Sequence record: NZ_CP044080.1
Source of the DNA: a plasmid
Length of the DNA: 64,000 bases
Direction: 5' to 3' (one strand)
The position numbers were made by a program, and so were the translations under genes. The notes beneath the pieces are model-generated. The model did not search any database. It was not told where the DNA came from and worked only from the letters and a program-made list of their open reading frames with translations. Positions 3,007 through 28,128 of the stretch are shown piece by piece; the stretch's first letter is position 1, and every line of letters begins with the position of its first letter.

Positions 3007-3483
3007 ATGAGCGATCTTCACACCATGCCGGGCCACCTGATCCGGCGGCTGCACCAGATCTCGGTCTCGCTGTTTGCCGCCCGCATGGCCGAGGCGGGAC
3101 TGGACCTGACCTCGGTGCAATATGCCGCACTGGTGACGGTCCGGGAAAACCCCGGGCTCGATCAGGCGACCCTGGCGGGGCTGATCGCCTATGACCGGGT
3201 GACCATCGGCGGCGTGGTCGAGCGGTTGGTGCAGAAGGGCCTGCTGCGGCGCGAGGTCAGCCCCCAGGACCGCCGCGCCCGGGTGCTGACGCTGACTCCG
3301 GCCGGTCAGGCCGTGCTTGAGACGGCCGACCCCTGGGTTGGGCGCGTGCAGGCCGATATCCTGTCGGACCTGACCGAATCCGAGCGGGCGATCTTTACCG
3401 AACTGCTGCGGAAATCGACCGAGGCCGGCAATGACAAAAGCCGCGCTCCGCTGCGTCCAGCACGCGGCGGGGGCGAATCCTGA
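3007..3483 (+). CDS. MarR-family transcriptional regulator.
   Basis: Winged-HTH MarR pattern (LTSVQYAALVTVRENPGLDQATLAGLIAYDRVTIGGVVERLVQKGLLRR). Co-directional with, and 40 bp after, the monooxygenase gene. Confidence 0.8.
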   Translation: MSDLHTMPGHLIRRLHQISVSLFAARMAEAGLDLTSVQYAALVTVRENPGLDQATLAGLIAYDRVTIGGVVERLVQKGLLRREVSPQDRRARVLTLTPAGQAVLETADPWVGRVQADILSDLTESERAIFTELLRKSTEAGNDKSRAPLRPARGGGES

Positions 3484-3606
3484 GCGAGAAAGCCGTCTAG
3501 TTTCATCAAGCTAAGACCAGGAAAGCCCTCCGAGAAAACACGTCTTGATTTATCGTGTTTTTGTGCCACTCTGGCCCCGTATCGCGGCGAAGAGGAGGCA
3601 GAGCCG

Positions 3607-4335
3607 ATGCAGCGACAGTTTCCCCGGTTGCGCGTCACGGGTCCGCAGGATTGCGCGGTGGCGCAAGGCGCCCGGCTTGCCCTGGCCCTGCGCGGCTGGC
3701 CGACCGGCGCCGCCGGGCAGGCCCAGGCCACGCGCCTGCTGGTCGAATCCCAGCCCGACGTGATCCTGACGATCGAGGACCCCGCCGCGATGATCGAGCT
3801 GATCGAGGATCTGCACCCCGGCCATCCCCTGCACCCCCGCGACCCCGCCGCCCGGGCGCGGCACCGCGAGTTGATCGCGCTGGTCGGCGCGGCGCGGGCC
3901 GAGTTGGGGCGGGTGACGGCGGCGCGGAACCTGCGCGATCTCGACATCGCGGTCTTTGCGCTGCGCGAGACGCTGGCGCGGCTGGACCGGGGGATCGCGG
4001 GCGAGACCGGGGTCGCGCTGACCAACCTCGACCTGGTGCTGGCGCCGGTGCTGTGGCGCGCGGCGATCCTGGACCGGCGCTTCGGCCTGCATCTGGGCGA
4101 CGGGCTGGCCGCCTGCCGGACGCGCATCGCGCAGGCCTATGGGCAGCCGCCGGTGCGGGCGATGCTGGACCGCGCGGCGGGGCGGCGCTTTCTGGACGGG
4201 TTGGACCCGCGGGCGGCGCTGTTCGATCTGGCGGGGGCCGCGGCGGAATGGCAGCGCGCCTTTGCCGACCTGCGCGCGCGCGTCCTGCCCTTTGCCCCGC
4301 CAGCCCCGCCCGCCCGCGCCGGGCGGCGCGGCTGA
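3607..4335 (+). CDS. Glutathione S-transferase-like protein.
   Basis: GST N-terminal thioredoxin-like signature (ILTIEDPAAMIELIEDLHPGHPLHPRDPAARARHREL). GAGGAGG RBS. Confidence 0.5.
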   Translation: MQRQFPRLRVTGPQDCAVAQGARLALALRGWPTGAAGQAQATRLLVESQPDVILTIEDPAAMIELIEDLHPGHPLHPRDPAARARHRELIALVGAARAELGRVTAARNLRDLDIAVFALRETLARLDRGIAGETGVALTNLDLVLAPVLWRAAILDRRFGLHLGDGLAACRTRIAQAYGQPPVRAMLDRAAGRRFLDGLDPRAALFDLAGAAAEWQRAFADLRARVLPFAPPAPPARAGRRG

Positions 4336-12418: not shown

Positions 12419-12817
12419 GGCAGGTTCCTCCCTCTGGGGCCAAACCCGCGGAGAAAGGCCGGGTTCCCGGGCAAGGCGTGCTGCGGTCACGCGGAAGTGA
12501 TGTCTGCCGCGGTCGACTGCCGTGGGGCAGGGGGCAATCCCTTGATTCCGTTGGACCGGCGTGGTCCGGCCTTCTGCGGGCCTGCGCCGCGCCGGGACCA
12601 AGCGAAAGGAAATCAAAGGATTGGACGTTCATCCCGTGGCTTTTCCAGCCACGCCTGATCGGCGGTGGGGCGGGCACGAACCCGCCGACAGCCGCCGGCT
12701 TTTGTCTGGGCCTGGGAATCGTCATGGACGCAGGCGCCTTCACGCATTAGGGAGAATTGGAAAAACCCTGCGCGCCTGACACCCGCCTGCGCGCACAAGA
12801 ACCGGACAGAGTCGAGC

Positions 12818-13597
12818 GTGCAAGCACAAGGACCAAGGGAAAACGCGGCCTCGCGTGTCGCGACCGTCAGGCCACTTCAGATCAGGGGTCGCTTTTTCAC
12901 GGCGATCGCGCTGCAACCCGCGGGGCCGGTCGACGACCGCTTTCTTGAGGCGCTGGACGCCAAGCTGCGCGAGACGCCGGCCTTTTTCGAGAACGCCCCG
13001 CTGGTCATCGACCTGGAACAGTCCCACGGCCTGGACGACCCACGCGAGCTGATGCTGCTGGCGCAGGAATTGCGGGCGCGCAAGCTGTCGGTCTTTGGCA
13101 TCCAGCATGGCACGCCCCAGCAGGTGGCGGCCGCGGCCTCGGCCGGGCTGATCGCCCTGCCGGGCGGGCGCAGCGTTCCCGTCGAACAGGTGGCGGCGCG
13201 TGCCGAAAGCCGTGGCCGGAAAGCCGGGCAGGGGGGACGCGATGCTCCGGGCGAGGCCCCGGCCCCCGCGCCGGCCAAGATGATCACCCAGCCCGTGCGC
13301 TCGGGCCAGACGGTGCTGGCCGAGCAGGGCGATCTGGTCATCGTGGGCCCGGTCAGTTCCGGGGCCGAGGTCATCGCTGCGGGCAACATCCACATCTATG
13401 GCCGGCTGCGCGGCCGGGCGCTGGCGGGCGTCATGGGCGACACCACCGCCCGCATCTTCTGCCACGCGCTCGACGCCGAGCTGCTGGCCATCGCCGGGCT
13501 TTACCTGACCAGCGAGAATCTGGCGGCGGACGTGCCGCGTCACTATGTGCAGGCGTTCCTGGACGGCGAAAGCCTGCGTGTCGAAGCCCTCAAGTAA
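12818..13597 (+). CDS. minC: Septum site-determining protein MinC.
   Basis: MinC C-terminal beta-helix dimerisation region ([31 protein letters not shown]). Start assigned to the GTG at 12818; start uncertain. A 400-bp leader lies upstream. Confidence 0.75.
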
Positions 13598-13618
13598 CAC
13601 AGGATAAGGAATCGTTTC

Positions 13619-14437
13619 GTGAGCAAGGTCATCGTAGTCACATCGGGCAAGGGCGGCGTCGGCAAGACGACCTCCTCCGCTGCCATCAGCGCAGGGCTCG
13701 CGATGCGCGGGCACAAGACGGTCGTGATCGATTTCGACGTGGGCCTGCGCAACCTGGACATGATCATGGGCTGCGAACGCCGCGTGGTGTTCGATTTCAT
13801 CAATGTGATCCAGGGCGACGCCAAGCTGAAACAGGCCCTGATCAAGGACCGCCGGCTGGAAAACCTGTATGTCCTGCCGACCTCGCAGACCCGCGACAAG
13901 GACGCCCTGACCCAGGAAGGCGTCAAGGCCGTGCTGGACGAGCTGCGCGAGGACTTCGACTATATCGTCTGCGACAGCCCCGCCGGGATCGAGCGCGGCG
14001 CCCATCTGGCGATGTATTACGCCGACGAGGCTGTGGTCGTGACCAATCCCGAGGTCTCCTCGGTGCGCGACAGCGACCGGGTACTGGGGCTGCTGAACTC
14101 CAAGACCTTCGTGGCCGAAAAGGGCGATGGCAGCGCGGTCAAGGCGCAGCTTCTGCTGACCCGCTTCGACCCCGCCCGCTCGGCCAAGGGCGAGATGATG
14201 AGCGTCGAGGACGTCCTGGAGATCCTGGCCATCCCGCTTTTGGGCATCATCCCGGAAAGCACCACCGTGCTGAAGGCCTCGAACGAGGGCACGCCGGTCA
14301 TCATGGATGAGACCTCGGCCGCGGCCAAGGCCTATGCCGATGCCGTGGGCCGGCTGGTCGGCGAACAGATCGCGCTGCGCACCAGCCCGGAACAGCGGCG
14401 CGGCTTCTTCCAGCGGCTGCTGGGGCGGACGGCCTGA
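13619..14437 (+). CDS. minD: Septum site-determining ATPase MinD.
   Basis: Deviant Walker A GKGGVGKTT, 272 aa, highly MinD-like throughout. Confidence 0.95.
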   Translation: MSKVIVVTSGKGGVGKTTSSAAISAGLAMRGHKTVVIDFDVGLRNLDMIMGCERRVVFDFINVIQGDAKLKQALIKDRRLENLYVLPTSQTRDKDALTQEGVKAVLDELREDFDYIVCDSPAGIERGAHLAMYYADEAVVVTNPEVSSVRDSDRVLGLLNSKTFVAEKGDGSAVKAQLLLTRFDPARSAKGEMMSVEDVLEILAIPLLGIIPESTTVLKASNEGTPVIMDETSAAAKAYADAVGRLVGEQIALRTSPEQRRGFFQRLLGRTA

Positions 14438-14438
14438 C

Positions 14439-14708
14439 ATGTTCGGTTCGCTTTTCCGCCAACGCAAGCCCGGCTCGGCCCAGACCGCCAAGGAGCGCCT
14501 GCAGATCCTGCTGGCCCATGAGCGCGCCATCGGCGGCTCGAGCCCCGATTTCCTGCCGCTGCTGCAACGCGACATCCTCGAGGTCGTGCGCCGCCACCTC
14601 GAGATCGACAGCGACGCCGTCGACGTCAAGCTCGAGCGCAGCGACGATCTGTCGAGCCTGGAGATCAACATCGAACTGCCCGGATCGAAGTCCCGGTCAG
14701 CCGTCTGA
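14439..14708 (+). CDS. minE: Cell division topological specificity factor MinE.
   Basis: 89 aa, MFGSLFRQRK...KERLQILLAHER. ATG lies 1 nt after the minD stop. Confidence 0.9.
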   Translation: MFGSLFRQRKPGSAQTAKERLQILLAHERAIGGSSPDFLPLLQRDILEVVRRHLEIDSDAVDVKLERSDDLSSLEINIELPGSKSRSAV

Positions 14709-14730
14709 CTGCCATCCCCGTGGTGTTTGA

Positions 14731-14768
14731 GGCGCCGCATCCCAGGCCGGGGCGCGGCGCCTTTGTCG
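14731..14768 (+). terminator. Rho-independent terminator after minE. GC hairpin GGCGCCGC...GCGGCGCC followed by CTTTGTC.
   Basis: Inverted repeat with an 8-bp stem and a downstream T-rich tract. Confidence 0.5.
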
Positions 14769-14857
14769 TGCCGCGTGCCGCACGGTTGGCGGCCCTGCAA
14801 ATTCTGCCGCCAAGCCCCTTGCATTCCCCGCGTCGCCGGGTTACCTGCCCCCCACGG

Positions 14858-14934
14858 TCGGAGCGTAGCGCAGCCTGGTAGCGCACCTGCTTCGGGAGCA
14901 GGGGGTCGGAGGTTCGAATCCTCTCGCTCCGACC
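14858..14934 (+). tRNA. tRNA-Pro, anticodon CGG.
   Basis: Manual cloverleaf. Acceptor stem CGGAGCG/CGCTCCG, D-arm GCGC-AGCCTGGTA-GCGC, anticodon stem CCTGC/GCAGG with loop TTCGGGA, T-arm GGAGG-TTCGAAT-CCTCT, discriminator A, CCA encoded. Confidence 0.85.
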
Positions 14935-15182
14935 AGTTTTGCGGTGTTCTGTGGCACATAGTTCTGCCTTTTCTGTCGGGCAGTCTGCCTCTCGGGCTTC
15001 TCAGCGTAACGAAAGCGGACGGTCAACGGTCGGCGCAACGGCGACGCGAAGAGCCCTTAGCGGACGGTCGCAAAGCGACAAACAATCGCCCCATAACGGT
15101 CTCTACTCGATGCCGTCGAGTTTCCGCGTCAGGGCCTCCTGTGAACCGCCCCGGGTTTACCGGAGAGTTTCTGGTTCAATGA

Positions 15183-16108
15183 TTAGGCTGCTTTTGCGGC
15201 GGCGTTCAAGCTTGTGTAGAATTCCTCCTCTGCTTCGTTCGGTGTGACGTAACCGATGGCGCTGTGCAGGCGCGTCTTGTTATACCAGTCGACCCACTTC
15301 AGGGTTTCCCACTCGACTTGACCCACGGATTTCCAAGGGCCGAGGAACTTGATGACCTCGGTCTTGAACAGGCCGATGATGCTTTCAGCCAGAGCGTTGT
15401 CATAGGAATCACCGACGCTGCCGACCGAGGTGTCGATGCCCGCCTCGGCCAGCCGCTCGGTATATCGGATCGAGAGATATTGGCTGCCCCGGTCGCTGTG
15501 ATGGATCAGCTTGTCAGCCTCGGACGGCGCGCGCTGGCAGATGGCCTGATTCAGAGCGTCGAGGACGAAACCGGTGGTCATCGAAGTCGAGACGCGCCAG
15601 CCGACGATCTTGCGGGCGAAGACGTCGATCACGAAGGCCACATAAACCATGCCCTGCCAACTTGAGACGTAGGTGAAATCGCTGACCCACAGCTGGTTCG
15701 GCATGTCTGCCACGAAGACCCGGTTCACCTTGTCGTCCGGACAGGGTTGGGCCGCATCGGGGTTGGTCGTGACGACCTTCTTGCCGCGCACAACGCCTTG
15801 CAACCCCATGACCTTCATCAGCCGCTCCACTGTGCAACGGGCGATGTCGCACCCTTCGCGGCGCAACTGGTGCCAAACCTTACGCGCGCCATATCGGCCT
15901 CTGCTGCCGTCGAATATCTGCTTGATGGCAGTCATGTCCTTCTGGTCCTGCCTGGCCCGATCCGATGCCAGGGTGGGATCACGCTCCACAGCCTTGAAAC
16001 TGTAGAACGTCGATGGTGCGATCCCCAGAACCCGGCAGATCGGCCCGACACCAAAGACGCCACGGTGATCGTCGAGAAACGCGATCATTTGCGGAACGGG
16101 CGGTCGAG
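15183..16108 (-). CDS. IS3-family transposase OrfB (DDE catalytic / integrase core domain). Separated from orfA by the nested IS110.
   Basis: Identical to orfB of copy 2. Integrase-core motifs (HSDRGSQYLS...). The annotated ORF acquires 12 extra N-terminal codons reading into the IS110 end. Confidence 0.85.
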
Positions 16109-16120
16109 TATCCGTCTTGG

Positions 16121-17059
16121 TCAAGGGCGGTCAGGCAGCCAATCTCGCCTCTCGCGCAGCAAGGTGTTTGCAAGGATGATGATGCGCCGCATGATGGCGG
16201 TAATGGCGACTTTCTTCGCTTTGCCGGCCTTTAGCAGCTGCTGATACTTGTCGTGGAGGTCCCGGTTGAAACGAATGGCGACAAGTGCGGGCATGTAGAT
16301 CGCGCGCCGAATTGATGACCGACCGCCGGTGATCCGCTCCTTGCCCTGCCACTTTCCAGATTGCTGCGTCATGGGCGCAAGCCCGGCGAGAGCGGTGATC
16401 TTCTTGCCCTCGAGGTGCCCAAGTTCCGGCATGTCGATCAGCATGGTGGTCGCGGTCAGACGACCAATCCCCGGAATGGTCATCAAACGGCGGATGCGCT
16501 CTTCAAGGGTGCCTCGCTGCCTGGCGATCTGCGCGATGACCTCATCAAGCGCTTGGATATCGGCACCAATGTCCTCAATGCGGCGACCAAGCTGTTCTCG
16601 CACGAGCGGGTTCAGTGCAGTAGCAAGCCGCGTCTTCGCGGTCACCTGATCTTTGATCAAAGCGCGGCGGGCAGTCAGCAACTCTCTGAGATCATGAACA
16701 TCTTCGCCTTCAACGACTTGAGGCGTCAGGTCAAGCACAACGCCCATGCGCGCCAGCATTCTGGCGTCGACGCTATCAGTCTTTGCCAATCGTCCGATTG
16801 CTTGCGCAAAGCGCCGCGCCTGCTTTGGATTGACTTTGATGAAAGGCAGCCCCGCCAGACCCAGATGCCGCTCAAGCCCCCGGTGATAGGCGCCGGTCGC
16901 CTCGAAGACGATGAGAACGTCTTCCTCCTTTCCCAGCCAGGCGCACAATTGCCCGAAACCTTCAGGCGTATTGGGCAGGCAGCACGCCTCCGTCCGGGAA
17001 TGCCAGAATGCGTCAAGACGGTCTTTCGACACGTCAATGCCGATGGTATCCTTGGCCAT
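16121..17059 (-). CDS. IS110-family DEDD transposase / recombinase.
   Basis: N-terminal DEDD RuvC-like domain (IGIDVSKDRL). C-terminal Transposase_20 motif (IPGIGRLTATTMLIDMPELGHL...LAGLAPMTQQSGKWQGK). Confidence 0.9.
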   Translation of the reverse strand: MAKDTIGIDVSKDRLDAFWHSRTEACCLPNTPEGFGQLCAWLGKEEDVLIVFEATGAYHRGLERHLGLAGLPFIKVNPKQARRFAQAIGRLAKTDSVDARMLARMGVVLDLTPQVVEGEDVHDLRELLTARRALIKDQVTAKTRLATALNPLVREQLGRRIEDIGADIQALDEVIAQIARQRGTLEERIRRLMTIPGIGRLTATTMLIDMPELGHLEGKKITALAGLAPMTQQSGKWQGKERITGGRSSIRRAIYMPALVAIRFNRDLHDKYQQLLKAGKAKKVAITAIMRRIIILANTLLRERRDWLPDRP

Positions 17060-17264
17060 CTTTTCTTCCTACCTATGCTTGTCGTTCGGGCCCGCAGCCC
17101 ACGTATCCGTTCAGGTCGTTAGAAAAGACGGGGGCTCGTCAAACTCGACCGCGGTCCTTCAAGACCAAGCTCCGCACGGCGCCACCCCCGCCGCTGCCCC
17201 GCAGTTTGCGGTGCTGGGCAGCGGCTCCCTTTTGCCTCAGGAGCCTCAAATCTCATAAGACAAG
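17060..17264 (-). ncRNA. Candidate IS110-family bridge RNA (non-coding left end).
   Basis: 205-bp non-coding end with strong stem-loops (CCGCTGCCCCGCAGTTTGCGGTGCTGGGCAGCGG). Minus-strand RNA contains GCGGUCGAG, identical to the 9 nt of target immediately left of the insertion point. A 6-nt segment complementary to the right flank (CTCCGC) lies about 20 nt away. Confidence 0.4.
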
Positions 17265-17582
17265 CTCCGCCGCAGCGAAATATGCGCTGGCCTTCTTCAG
17301 GATCTCATTGGCGGTGCGAAGCTCCCGCACCTCGCGTTCCAGTTCCTTGATCCGGTCCTTCTCCGCGCTCGTCAGCCCGCCGCGCTCTCCGCGGTCACGC
17401 TCCGCCTGCTGGCACCAGACGCGCAGACTGTCGGGAGAGCAGCCAAGCTTCGGCGCGATCGCCTTGTAGGCCGCACTGTCGCTGGCGTAGTCGCCGCGGT
17501 TCTCGCGGAAAAGCCGAACACCGCGTTCGCGCAGTTCGGCCGGATAGGCGGGGGTGAATCTTTGCTTCGTCATAGGGCTCAT
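17253..17582 (-). CDS. IS3-family transposase OrfA (HTH). The 3' end is altered by the nested IS110, and the frameshift fusion to orfB is abolished.
   Basis: Identical to orfA of copy 2 up to AAAEL, then reads into IS110 (..VL*). Confidence 0.8.
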   Translation of the reverse strand: MSPMTKQRFTPAYPAELRERGVRLFRENRGDYASDSAAYKAIAPKLGCSPDSLRVWCQQAERDRGERGGLTSAEKDRIKELEREVRELRTANEILKKASAYFAAAELVL

Positions 17583-18066
17583 CCTTTGAGTGCTCTACTC
17601 TCCGGTAAACCCGGGGCGGTTCAAACCCGCGGAACGAAAGCACAAGTCCGTTGAAGGGAACGTTCTGCAATGTAGACAATGAAGAGTTTCTGGCCGTAAC
17701 GGGCGTGAATTCCGTTGTGAGCCACTACACGACCGGACAATATGCGCCTCAGGCGAGTTCGGGCATCTCGCCAGACAACGCGTTTAATCTGACCAGAACC
17801 AATGCGGAGCGGGTTGGCGGCGCGATCACGGTGCCGAATGGCTTCGATAGCTGCCTGATCGCGGTCGATACATTCATGTCCAACAAATATGCAAAGGCCC
17901 GGCTGTTTCCGATATCTCTGTATCTTCGCTTCCTGGGGGGAGATTTGAACTACACCGGCACGGCAAATGCCTGGAATTGAGGCGTAAAGACGGAGGTTTC
18001 TCACGGTTGCCGACCGGCTTTCGACCAAGGAGGGTGCGTGAGCTTTTGCGAGGAGACGGCGGCCTG

Positions 18067-18474
18067 TTACCCATGATGATCCGGATCAATATATCGCCGG
18101 AATGCGATGAGGATTGCCGCGTCATTTTTCCCGAATCGGTCAGCGGGAGCGCCGTCGAAATCGACGTGAGCGCGGGTCAGCCAATAGCAGAGCCTCAGGT
18201 TGCTGATGCGAGCCGGTCTGAGCCTCAGGATGTCACGGACGATATCAAAGACACCGCCGTTCGCCGTGTCGAACTGGAACAGTGGCAACCTGATCTCACC
18301 ATTCTGGACCAGGGTGATGACGGTATCGTCTCGGGCCATGGCCTGGATGGCGGCTTCCGGGTCATCCGTTTCGATGCGCAAGAGCGCGCAGGCCTGCGAC
18401 GCATCGATCAGGTCGATGCTGGCGAGAAGGCGTTCCTCGACACCGGGCTTGTCGGTGGAATTTTCCGGCGGCAT
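18067..18474 (-). CDS. DUF2384 (Xre / MbcA / ParS antitoxin-like toxin-binding domain) protein. Last gene of the five-gene operon.
   Basis: C-terminal block RLCYWLTRAHVDFDGAPADRFGKNDAAIL resembles the DUF2384 antitoxin signature. AAGGGGAA RBS. ATG lies 1 nt after the TAG stop of the upstream gene. Confidence 0.45.
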   Translation of the reverse strand: MPPENSTDKPGVEERLLASIDLIDASQACALLRIETDDPEAAIQAMARDDTVITLVQNGEIRLPLFQFDTANGGVFDIVRDILRLRPARISNLRLCYWLTRAHVDFDGAPADRFGKNDAAILIAFRRYIDPDHHG

Positions 18475-18475
18475 T

Positions 18476-19295
18476 CTATTTCCCCTTCGAAACGGCTCGG
18501 TTCCGCATCTCATCGAACGTAAATCCGGCGGGCAGCGTGACCTCGCTGACGGAGAGGTAGCCGCCAATGCATTCCGGGCAGACATGCCGGCCCTCCGGCA
18601 GCCATTTGCGCACGGCCTCTCCTATGGTGACAATTGTCTCGTTCGTCGCAGCTACGACAATCCGCCCGTTGCGCACCACGGCCTGCCCCGAGACCAAGGC
18701 CGGATCGAGGATCCGGCCGCAGCCCGCGCACAGCACCGTGGGCCAGGCGCGGCCCGGTTCCACCTGATCCCAATGCGCATTCACCGGGAGTCTGGCGGCG
18801 CGGCGCAAGATTTCCGGCAGCATTACCGGCCGGAAATCCCAGACATCCGCACCGACGTTGACGGAGTTACGGCTGCCCTGCCAGTTCTGGTGGAACATGC
18901 CCGAAAAGTTGCAAACCTTGGTGCCGTGCGCCGGGCCAGGTGATCATGGGATAGTGGCAGAGAAACAGCCGCCGCTTGTCGACGACGATGTCGGCAGTTT
19001 CCGCGACGCTGTCCCAGGGCAGGTCGCAGACCCAGTCGTCGTCATGGTTGCCCCGGATCAGGTGCCTGCGGCCCGGCAAGGCATGGAAGATGCCGCGAAC
19101 CTCGCGCCGTTGCGCATCGGTGGCCCTTCCCGCGGTGAAATCTCCCAGGATCCACAGATCGTCATCGGGTCCAACCCGGGCCCGGCACTCGGCCAGCTGG
19201 TGGGCGTTCATCGTGGCCACCTCCGGGAACGGGCGGTCGCAGAAGCGGATGATATTGCCGTGCGAATAGTGCGGATCGGCGGTGAACCAATGCAT
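18476..19295 (-). pseudogene. Calcineurin-like metallophosphoesterase with a C-terminal Cys-rich zinc-ribbon extension. Single-nucleotide frameshift near 18888 (possibly a sequencing error).
   Basis: Motifs DPHYSHGN, LGDFT, GNHDD in frame A. GHV(H)QNWQGSRNSVNVG is restored by deleting one C in GTTCCACCA. Frame B carries CAGCGR...CPEC. GGAGGG RBS. ATG lies 1 nt after the upstream stop. Confidence 0.6.
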
Positions 19296-26802: not shown

Positions 26803-26843
26803 TGAACCGCCCCGGGTTTACCGGAGAGTTTCTGGTTCAATGA

Positions 26844-27749
26844 TTAGGCTGCTTTTGCGGCGGCGTTCAAGCTTGTGTAGAATTCCTCCTCTGCTTCGTT
26901 CGGTGTGACGTAACCGATGGCGCTGTGCAGGCGCGTCTTGTTATACCAGTCGACCCACTTCAGGGTTTCCCACTCGACTTGACCCACGGATTTCCAAGGG
27001 CCGAGGAACTTGATGACCTCGGTCTTGAACAGGCCGATGATGCTTTCAGCCAGAGCGTTGTCATAGGAATCACCGACGCTGCCGACCGAGGTGTCGATGC
27101 CCGCCTCGGCCAGCCGCTCGGTATATCGGATCGAGAGATATTGGCTGCCCCGGTCGCTGTGATGGATCAGCTTGTCAGCCTCGGACGGCGCGCGCTGGCA
27201 GATGGCCTGATTCAGAGCGTCGAGGACGAAACCGGTGGTCATCGAAGTCGAGACGCGCCAGCCGACGATCTTGCGGGCGAAGACGTCGATCACGAAGGCC
27301 ACATAAACCATGCCCTGCCAACTTGAGACGTAGGTGAAATCGCTGACCCACAGCTGGTTCGGCATGTCTGCCACGAAGACCCGGTTCACCTTGTCGTCCG
27401 GACAGGGTTGGGCCGCATCGGGGTTGGTCGTGACGACCTTCTTGCCGCGCACAACGCCTTGCAACCCCATGACCTTCATCAGCCGCTCCACTGTGCAACG
27501 GGCGATGTCGCACCCTTCGCGGCGCAACTGGTGCCAAACCTTACGCGCGCCATATCGGCCTCTGCTGCCGTCGAATATCTGCTTGATGGCAGTCATGTCC
27601 TTCTGGTCCTGCCTGGCCCGATCCGATGCCAGGGTGGGATCACGCTCCACAGCCTTGAAACTGTAGAACGTCGATGGTGCGATCCCCAGAACCCGGCAGA
27701 TCGGCCCGACACCAAAGACGCCACGGTGATCGTCGAGAAACGCGATCAT
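26844..27749 (-). CDS. IS3-family transposase OrfB (DDE integrase core).
   Basis: rve integrase-core motifs. Overlaps orfA in the -1 frame. Confidence 0.9.
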   Translation of the reverse strand: MIAFLDDHRGVFGVGPICRVLGIAPSTFYSFKAVERDPTLASDRARQDQKDMTAIKQIFDGSRGRYGARKVWHQLRREGCDIARCTVERLMKVMGLQGVVRGKKVVTTNPDAAQPCPDDKVNRVFVADMPNQLWVSDFTYVSSWQGMVYVAFVIDVFARKIVGWRVSTSMTTGFVLDALNQAICQRAPSEADKLIHHSDRGSQYLSIRYTERLAEAGIDTSVGSVGDSYDNALAESIIGLFKTEVIKFLGPWKSVGQVEWETLKWVDWYNKTRLHSAIGYVTPNEAEEEFYTSLNAAAKAA

Positions 27750-28087
27750 TTGCGGAACGGGCGGTCGAGCTCCGCCGCAGCGAAATATGCGCTGGCCTTC
27801 TTCAGGATCTCATTGGCGGTGCGAAGCTCCCGCACCTCGCGTTCCAGTTCCTTGATCCGGTCCTTCTCCGCGCTCGTCAGCCCGCCGCGCTCTCCGCGGT
27901 CACGCTCCGCCTGCTGGCACCAGACGCGCAGACTGTCGGGAGAGCAGCCAAGCTTCGGCGCGATCGCCTTGTAGGCCGCACTGTCGCTGGCGTAGTCGCC
28001 GCGGTTCTCGCGGAAAAGCCGAACACCGCGTTCGCGCAGTTCGGCCGGATAGGCGGGGGTGAATCTTTGCTTCGTCATAGGGCTCAT
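27746..28087 (-). CDS. IS3-family transposase OrfA (HTH).
   Basis: HTH and leucine-zipper-like region (ELEREVRELRTANEILKKASAYFAAAEL). Confidence 0.9.
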   Translation of the reverse strand: MSPMTKQRFTPAYPAELRERGVRLFRENRGDYASDSAAYKAIAPKLGCSPDSLRVWCQQAERDRGERGGLTSAEKDRIKELEREVRELRTANEILKKASAYFAAAELDRPFRK

Positions 28088-28128
28088 CCTTTGAGTGCTC
28101 TACTCTCCGGTAAACCCGGGGCGGTTCA

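Follow-up and report, generated by a model that had tools for sequence, protein, structure and literature searches.

A close described counterpart of the locus treated here is the bridge RNA and recombinase system of the insertion sequence (IS) IS621 in Escherichia coli (Durrant et al. 2024, PMC11208160; Hiraizumi et al. 2024, PMC11208158), in whose scheme the left target guide has the same sequence as the target's top strand (Durrant et al., PMC11208160). Bridge RNAs are reported to be diverse, so scored RNA similarity is no strict criterion (PMC11208160). Another member of the IS110 family, ISEc21, has a seekRNA and targets the codons around the DDE motif's second D in IS3 (Siddiquee et al. 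2024, PMC11187229). In elements of the IS1111 type, the non-coding region is found downstream of the gene, inverted repeats occur in subterminal position, and the two target matches come in reversed order (PMC11187229). Here we describe an IS110-family element at positions 16109-17264 (minus strand) of a 64,000-nucleotide stretch of plasmid record NZ_CP044080.1, which we refer to as the window. The part of its non-coding left end from 17060 to about 17245 (minus strand) very probably encodes an IS621-type bridge RNA of an active IS110-group insertion sequence, a reading to which we assign, from comparative sequence evidence, a probability of about 0.93.

Results

Element, recombinase and insertion junction

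The window carries two copies of a 1326-base-pair (bp) IS3-family element, an intact one at 26803-28128 and one that is interrupted by the IS110-family element, with both interrupted halves being 100% identical to the intact copy. Aligned against the latter, the nested element is complete and measures 1156 bp; its insertion point on the plus strand is GCGGTCGAG^CTCCGCC, and the uninterrupted target on the element strand reads GGCGGAG-CT-CGACCGCC. An earlier inspection of the letters of the window (hereafter the sequence-only reading) had regarded these boundaries as exactly fixed by the intact copy, the insertion as free of target duplication, and the stretch upstream of the recombinase gene as the only substantial non-coding region. 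The alignment bears out the boundaries save for 2 bp that are ambiguous because CT, the ‘core’ of IS110 elements, stands at both junctions, and the two BLAST segments accordingly share 2 nucleotides (nt). Apart from this CT dinucleotide, empty and filled IS3 sites are the same, with no duplication and no terminal inverted repeats, and an identical junction type is found in 20+ relatives. The non-coding left end of 205 nt was likewise confirmed as the only long stretch of its kind; the element extends just 12 nt beyond the stop codon (Table 1).

The element is 100% identical to part of the Paracoccus yeei FDAARGOS_643 plasmid NZ_CP044079.1. As for an ISfinder-type name, no 1156-bp element is present among the IS110/IS1111 elements of CCUG 32053 in the supplements of the P. 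yeei genome paper.

Two Pfam families, PF01548 (DEDD_Tnp_IS110) and PF02371 (Transposase_20), both match the recombinase, which combines a DEDD RuvC-like domain at its N-terminus with a Tnp domain at its C-terminus that bears the catalytic serine. With the NCBIfam equivalog NF033542 (‘IS110 family RNA-guided transposase’), whose cutoff is 140, the protein reaches 210.9 bits, and NCBI already applies the name ‘RNA-guided transposase’ to this exact protein. Among solved structures, ISCro4 (9t56) is the best match with E = 1.2e-28, and IS621 (8wt6), to which the recombinase is 31% identical, matches with E = 8.9e-26. Moreover, D9, E53, D95, D98, and S234 (S234-G235) align with D11, E60, D102, D105, and S241 (S241-G242) of IS621, five catalytic residues that have been shown to be essential there.

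Predicted RNA structure and junction promoter

For the structural analysis, 56 related loci were gathered with one genome per species, and 32 distinct left ends from elements with recombinases 98% to about 50% identical were aligned. The curated structure that was scored consists of two 5' hairpins, a target module with basal stem and apical hairpin, a donor apical hairpin, and a short basal stem. In this structure 96.2% of cells are paired, a share that drops to 33-53% once the 3' partners are shifted by 1-3 columns, and 18 of 40 pairs have changed on both sides, values that none of 500 shuffles reaches. Besides the two 5' hairpins (Table 1), double changes occur in five pairs of helix 3 in the target-binding module, which helix is 98% paired, and in three pairs of helix 6, the donor apical hairpin at 17088-17100; helix 4, also in the target-binding module, is paired throughout (100%). 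For the basal stem of the donor module, support comes mainly from the single-sequence fold. The RNAalifold consensus agrees with the curated structure; two pairs that it places inside the target loop (columns 87-112 and 88-111) lack compensatory changes and were for this reason dismissed as artefacts that arise from the palindromic target.

The sequence-only reading had proposed folding of the segment as a check, and both the target-binding and the donor-binding loop were recovered, with stems backed by compensatory changes. Both guide pairs described below fall in unpaired internal loops of two modules with the layout stem / loop / stem-loop. A covariance model built from the 32 relatives (R1) finds one copy in the window and reaches two relatives whose recombinases are only 36% identical (L044 and L046; E = 3e-6 and 3e-3). 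Some of the gathered loci are deletion derivatives: L054 (1373-1530) has kept the target module and is devoid of the donor module and the first ~85 codons, and L013 and L028 are devoid of the 5' part of the left end.

The candidate promoter elements lie at opposite ends of the element (Table 1). In an excised circle they would be arranged as TTGACC-17 nt-TATGAG, resembling the TTGCAG-17-TATTAT layout of IS621, and the right end shows no variation even in relatives whose amino-acid identity is as low as 50%. The TGA stop codon of the recombinase gene is located within the TTGACC hexamer of the 12-nt right end, so that coding and promoter constraints would overlap there.

Predicted guide segments in the target and donor loops

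The target module of the predicted RNA reads CGU, GCGGAGCU, hairpin, GC, and GGUCGAG, and the donor module reads GA, ACGGAUAC, hairpin, and GACAAG. The 9-nt copy of the insertion site that had been noticed in the sequence-only reading on the transposase strand (GCGGUCGAG) is present at 17144-17152 and is the reverse complement of CT+CGACCGC; by comparison with IS621, it probably consists of the 7-nt right target guide and a 2-nt GC linker that also matches the target by coincidence. A second match, GCGGAG, had been given at a distance of about 20 nt. The match itself stands, but it is 8 nt long (GCGGAGCU, including the CT core) and lies 15 nt away. The same holds for the proposed polarity, where both guides were correctly recognised and only their labels, taken from the plus strand, have to be exchanged: on the element strand, GCGGAGCU is the left and GGUCGAG the right guide. 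Complementarity of the donor loop to the element ends, which had been suggested as a further check, was found as well, with ACGGAUAC matching the right end plus C and GACAAG complementing the left end.

Relative to one target strand, GCGGAGCU is identical and GCGGUCGAG complementary, and the polarity of both target guides thus agrees with the scheme of Durrant et al. (PMC11208160). The expectation from composition is 0.0027 per 205 nt for the 9-mer and 0.0077 for the 8-mer, and both target motifs co-occur in 7 of 200,000 composition-preserving shuffles, in which no demands were made on order, strand polarity, or spacing. At the handshake positions, C188 faces target G7 and U122 faces donor A7, with only the first of the two handshake positions fitting.

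These motifs might also act as double-stranded DNA, i.e. as subterminal sites that the recombinase recognises in both element and target with no RNA guide, which was the usual view of subterminal similarity in site-specific IS elements before 2024. We consider this very unlikely, as the loops are bounded by helices that are kept by compensatory changes and G-U pairs, a single-stranded and strand-specific constraint. Several of the conserved pairs are G-U, and the opposite strand would have C-A mismatches at these places; since the conserved G-U pairs exist on the minus strand alone, the constraint acts on a single strand of this polarity. Further, the opposite polarity of the two halves matches the RNA-DNA pairing solved for IS621, and the homologous recombinases of IS621 and ISCro4 have solved structures, that of IS621 in complex with its bridge RNA.

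Guides and targets change together among relatives

Nine more places carry an identical recombinase together with an identical 205-nt left end. At least eight of them belong to another P. yeei genome (GCA_049391675.1) and one to a metagenome contig, and all are at the same IS3 site; the exact recombinase protein occurs on 268 contigs. The element has therefore been recently active or has been carried along by IS3. A survey of other copies for insertion sites that match the same guide had been named as a check in the sequence-only reading; these nine places are in line with it, and subfamilies with different guides reside in correspondingly different targets. Full-length relatives with the same guides were found in Paracoccus, Falsochrobactrum, Daeguia, Falsirhodobacter, Donghicola, Sphingobium, Novosphingobium, and others, where they sit in ...TATTTTGC...GGCGGAG^CTCGACCGCC...; their outer flanks differ, which points to different host IS3 elements. 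At three loci the insertion lies in a non-IS3 site that resembles the target, namely GGCGGTG-CT-CGACCGA (L006), TGCGGAG-CT-CGACTGA (L009), and GGGGAG-CT-CGAGCGG (L016).

In more distant subfamilies, donor ends and donor loop are kept, target loops have changed, and the flanks have changed to match. The guides CUUUGGGCU and GUUUUCGAG are found with the flanking target TT(C/T)GGG-CT-CGAAGC, CUUUGGGCU and GUUUUUGAG with TTTGGG-CT-CAAA.., CUAUGGGCU and GUUUCUGAG with TATGGG-CT-CAGAGCC, and UUGCCCUCU and GUUCCCGAG with CACCCT-CT-CGGGACC. The Tateyamaria subfamily has the guides CUUUGGGCU and UUUCGAG. When targets were permuted among guide classes (29 insertions with 10 guide pairs, a small sample of related sequences), the observed guide-target match at non-core positions was 105 against a permuted mean of 65.7, and 3 of 100,000 permutations reached 105. 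L044 and L046 were left out of this reading of guides and flanks, being single copies whose element ends are not fixable. The donor side shows the same behaviour on a smaller scale: L020 has A for G at the same position in both its right end and its left donor guide, and the right donor guide follows the left end in L023 (CTTTTC/GAAAAG) and L012 (CTTATC/GATAAG). Likewise, the right donor guide is followed by C if G stands at target position 7, and by A in L040, which has T at this position, a change that fits the ‘handshake’ position described for IS621.

A more conventional explanation would be that the 205 nt are merely the 5' untranslated region and promoter of the recombinase gene and that the site matches arose by chance, aided by a GC-rich, partly palindromic target. 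The target is indeed an imperfect palindrome (GGCGG...CCGCC), so both ‘guides’ begin with GCGG, and there is an overlap between the ribosome-binding region and the second module's basal stem, which suits a leader function. In addition, the z-scores of the single-sequence folds are unremarkable and similar on both strands (-2.24 and -2.41), and we gave them no weight. We nevertheless regard this explanation as extremely improbable given the rarity of both target motifs together in shuffled sequences, the corresponding loop of the second module with its two further matches to the ends of the element itself, the joint change of guides and flanks across subfamilies, and the compensatory changes in the stems.

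Like these z-scores, a number of other results weigh against an IS621-type bridge RNA. R1 does not detect the IS621 left end, even with filters off, and a scan of 15000-18500 with Rfam 15 (E-value mode) yielded no family that matches the left end. The comparison with the IS621 RNA that the sequence-only reading had suggested therefore came out divided: the register of the segments agrees with the published coordinates, while Rfam and R1 gave no match, and for this reason RNA homology to IS621 rests on architecture and register, not on a scored match. Guide fit is poor in L034 (7/14), L035 (6/14), L036 (8/14), and L037 (9/14), where the right half is poor. The nine further places in P. yeei may reflect transposition of an IS3::IS110 composite and would then not be independent. 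Finally, the candidate -10 box TATGAG is weak, with no T at position 6, a position that varies among relatives, and no sigma-70 site passes a scan of the integrated locus.

Some matches and loci from these searches deserve separate mention. A 7-bit match of R1 in the IS621 locus L057 was rejected, as it represents a REP-like hairpin outside the element, and the remaining Rfam matches over 15000-18500 are the ALIL pseudoknot at the junction (see below) and a chance match to a snoRNA. In L034 (1294-2452, Paenochrobactrum gallinarii), the guides are close to the IS3-targeting type and the flanks CCCGTAC-CT / CA-CGACGAG are unmatched; this may be an off-target insertion or the result of a later rearrangement.

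The absence of a detectable promoter in the integrated context, together with a perfect free target in an intact IS3 only ~10 kb away, would also suit a former bridge RNA whose present copy is an inactive relic trapped in a dead IS3. We hold this to be just as improbable as a mere leader, because the reading frame is intact with all catalytic residues present, the guides, the ends, and the candidate -35 box of the right end are all at the family consensus, and recombinase and left end recur unchanged at the places listed above.

The target is the frameshift hairpin of the host IS3

By its insertion the IS110-family element has parted orfA from orfB and destroyed the frameshift hairpin of its host IS3, with orfA now stopping at a UGA 10-12 nt inside the left end of the element. 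The insertion point lies in the first hairpin of ALIL (RF01497 in Rfam), a pseudoknot that stimulates the -1 frameshift in IS3-family elements, and the target corresponds to the conserved first hairpin GGCGGA.GCUCGACCGCC of the model consensus. RF01497 scores 101.3 bits in the intact copy (27675-27791) and 70.5 bits in the interrupted one (gathering score 50), where the match abuts the right end of the IS110-family element. Among 19 related loci, 14 have such a same-strand ALIL match directly bordering the right end. Judged by these insertion sites, the natural target is the conserved IS3-family frameshift hairpin (ALIL) across many alphaproteobacterial genera, and the element therefore enters IS3 copies in a fixed orientation that splits orfA from orfB.

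A second target-like site, GGCGGAGCGTGACCGC, is located in orfA of both IS3 copies (17391-17406 and 27896-27911, minus strand); it has 2 mismatches and no CT core and is unoccupied. A tRNA gene (14859-14932, plus strand; Rfam RF00005, 65 bits) is located at a distance of about 210 bp from the interrupted IS3, on the side of its outer end, and overlaps the end of a long minus-strand open reading frame (12740..14959).

Table 1. Features of the IS110-family element, its predicted bridge RNA, and the host IS3 (positions in the window)
Feature	Position	Strand	Remarks
Interrupted IS3-family element	15142..17623	minus	halves 15142-16108 and 17265-17623 (BLAST segment from 17263/5)
Recombinase gene	17059..16121	minus	312 amino acids; sole gene in 1156 bp
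Non-coding left end	17060-17264	minus	205 nt upstream of recombinase gene; only long non-coding stretch
Right end		minus	12 nt after recombinase stop codon
Candidate -35 box TTGACC	16119..16124	minus	in right end, overlaps recombinase stop codon; predicted to function only in the excised circle
Candidate -10 box TATGAG	17252..17257	minus	4/6 positions match; predicted
Predicted bridge RNA	17060..17245	minus	5' end placed near 17245 from the putative junction promoter; 3' end abuts start codon
Two 5' hairpins, GGCUCC...GGGAGCC and GCUGCCC...GGGCAGC	17193..17245	minus	helices 1 and 2; 10/16 pairs changed on both sides
Target-binding module	17130..17189	minus	basal stem 17179-17189 with 17130-17141, internal loop, apical hairpin 17153-17166
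Left target guide GCGGAGCU	17168..17175	minus	identical to left target plus CT core (element strand); would pair with bottom strand
Right target guide GGUCGAG	17144-17150	minus	adjacent GC linker 17151-17152; together the 9-mer GCGGUCGAG
Donor-binding module	17060..17127	minus	basal stem takes in ribosome-binding region before AUG; minimum-free-energy fold
Left donor guide ACGGAUAC	17103..17110	minus	right-end terminus ACGGATA (last 7 nt) plus core C
Right donor guide GACAAG	17078..17083	minus	reverse complement of left-end start CTTGTC (first 6 nt)
Free perfect 16-nt target GGCGGAGCTCGACCGC	27761..27776	minus	in intact IS3 copy, inside its ALIL match; ~10 kb from resident IS110 element

Discussion

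A bridge-RNA mode of life of this element would comprise the following steps. The element would excise as a circle with a junction reading ...GACGGATA-CT-TGTCTTATG..., leaving behind a restored IS3 site that should read GGCGGAGCTCGACCGCC. Joining of right and left end would create the promoter TTGACC-17-TATGAG, which might then drive the RNA and the recombinase. The folded RNA would consist of one or two hairpins at the 5' end and of two modules built as stem / internal-loop / hairpin, and a tetramer of the DEDD/Ser recombinase would swap strands at the shared CT core. In the integrated state, read-through from IS3 could supply the low expression needed for excision, which is possible because the element always lies in sense orientation within a transcribed IS3. 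The RNA ends, transcription, protein binding, and recombination chemistry of this element we infer by analogy with IS621.

One may go further and see in this IS110 lineage a dedicated, reversible silencer of IS3-family elements. It would always land sense-oriented in the hairpin that IS3 needs for its OrfAB transposase, IS3 transcription could express RNA and recombinase while the element is integrated, and scarless excision would restore a working IS3. Moreover, GCGGUCGAG complements the 3' arm of this hairpin as it occurs in mRNA from intact IS3 copies, through which the bridge RNA might even damp IS3 frameshifting in trans. We consider such a dedicated role unlikely. Both the fixed orientation and the complementarity to the mRNA are automatic consequences of the targeting scheme.

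Publications on this class of mechanism date from 2024 onwards, the label RNA-guided is already in use for the protein family, and the known mechanism is unchanged by our analysis. What the locus adds is the IS3 frameshift hairpin as a target and a set of naturally reprogrammed relatives. It very probably represents a natural bridge-RNA example whose guide loops can be read directly against the empty site in the same window, and its close relatives show natural reprogramming of the target loop with the donor loop fixed. With their different guides on a shared scaffold, these relatives could be a small test set for guide prediction and could provide orthologues for the engineering of bridge recombinases.

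Comparison with known systems

Much of the architecture of the P. yeei element is shared with IS621, such as a long RNA-bearing left end and a short right end, a CT core, the lack of inverted repeats and duplication, candidate promoter boxes (-35 in the right end, -10 in the left) with 17 nt between them, and a recombinase with conserved DEDD and Ser residues in spite of only 31% identity. The likeness extends to the two pseudo-symmetric RNA modules, which have the same segment order, guide polarity, CGU and G-N linkers, and handshake positions. For this register, an IS621 copy taken from E. coli was set against the published coordinates (PMC11208158). The target module reads CGU / AUCGGGCCU / U / hairpin / GU / UGCGUAG / AU in IS621 and CGU / GCGGAGCU / U / hairpin / GC / GGUCGAG / UU in the P. 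yeei element, so both follow the order CGU / left guide / U / hairpin / G-N / 7-nt right guide / 2-nt handshake. Likewise, the donor modules, GG / ACAGUAUC / AU / hairpin / GU / AUUUGCAAG / GU in IS621 and GA / ACGGAUAC / GU / hairpin / GA / ACGACAAG / CA in the P. yeei element, have in common G-N / 8-nt left guide / N-U / hairpin / G-N / right guide / 2-nt handshake.

On the other hand, similarity at the level of RNA sequence is too low for R1 to bridge, and several minor details differ. The left target guide has 8 nt instead of the 9 nt of IS621, the complementarity on the right side of the target can reach 9 nt, the single 5' hairpin of IS621 probably has two counterparts here, and the donor module has a far shorter apical hairpin. 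The targets differ as well, being an IS3 frameshift hairpin here and a REP element in IS621. The IS621 locus of E. coli BS15R-A (L057, 1560-1700) shows a peculiarity of its own, a tandem partial duplication of the left end whose repeat starts directly after ATCGGGC-CT within the DNA encoding its own left target guide, as if guide-coding DNA had served as a half-target.

The best-scoring solved structure is that of ISCro4 (IS622), a distant orthologue within the same RNA-guided DEDD/Ser recombinase family, compared here at the level of its recombinase. The homing of IS110-family elements into IS3 elements has a precedent in ISEc21, which likewise encodes its guide RNA upstream of the recombinase gene and has as its natural target a conserved stretch within IS3-family elements. 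The P. yeei element and its relatives, however, target the frameshift hairpin between orfA and orfB instead of the codons around the DDE motif.

With the IS1111 group (IS4321/IS5075, ISEc11, ISPa11), the element has in common an RNA-guided recombinase of the DEDD type, insertion into a specific target, often another mobile element, and a circular intermediate bearing a promoter at its junction, the last of which is predicted here. It differs from this group in its upstream non-coding region, the mere 12 nt downstream of the gene, the lack of subterminal inverted repeats, and the IS110-type order of target matches. An IS1111-type layout was found in a second, different IS110-family element that occupies the terminal inverted repeat of the same IS3 in L059-L067 (GCA_049391675.1 and one metagenome contig) and is absent from the window. 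This element is inserted at TGAACC^GCCCCGGG (about 640-980 or 3410-3720 in locus coordinates) at either IS3 end, always pointing inward, and it has a 338-amino-acid recombinase and ~300 nt of non-coding sequence downstream of the gene that contain TGAACC motifs. The IS3 of GCA_049391675.1 thus appears to host two RNA-guided elements at two conserved sites, one resembling IS621 and the other of the IS1111 type.

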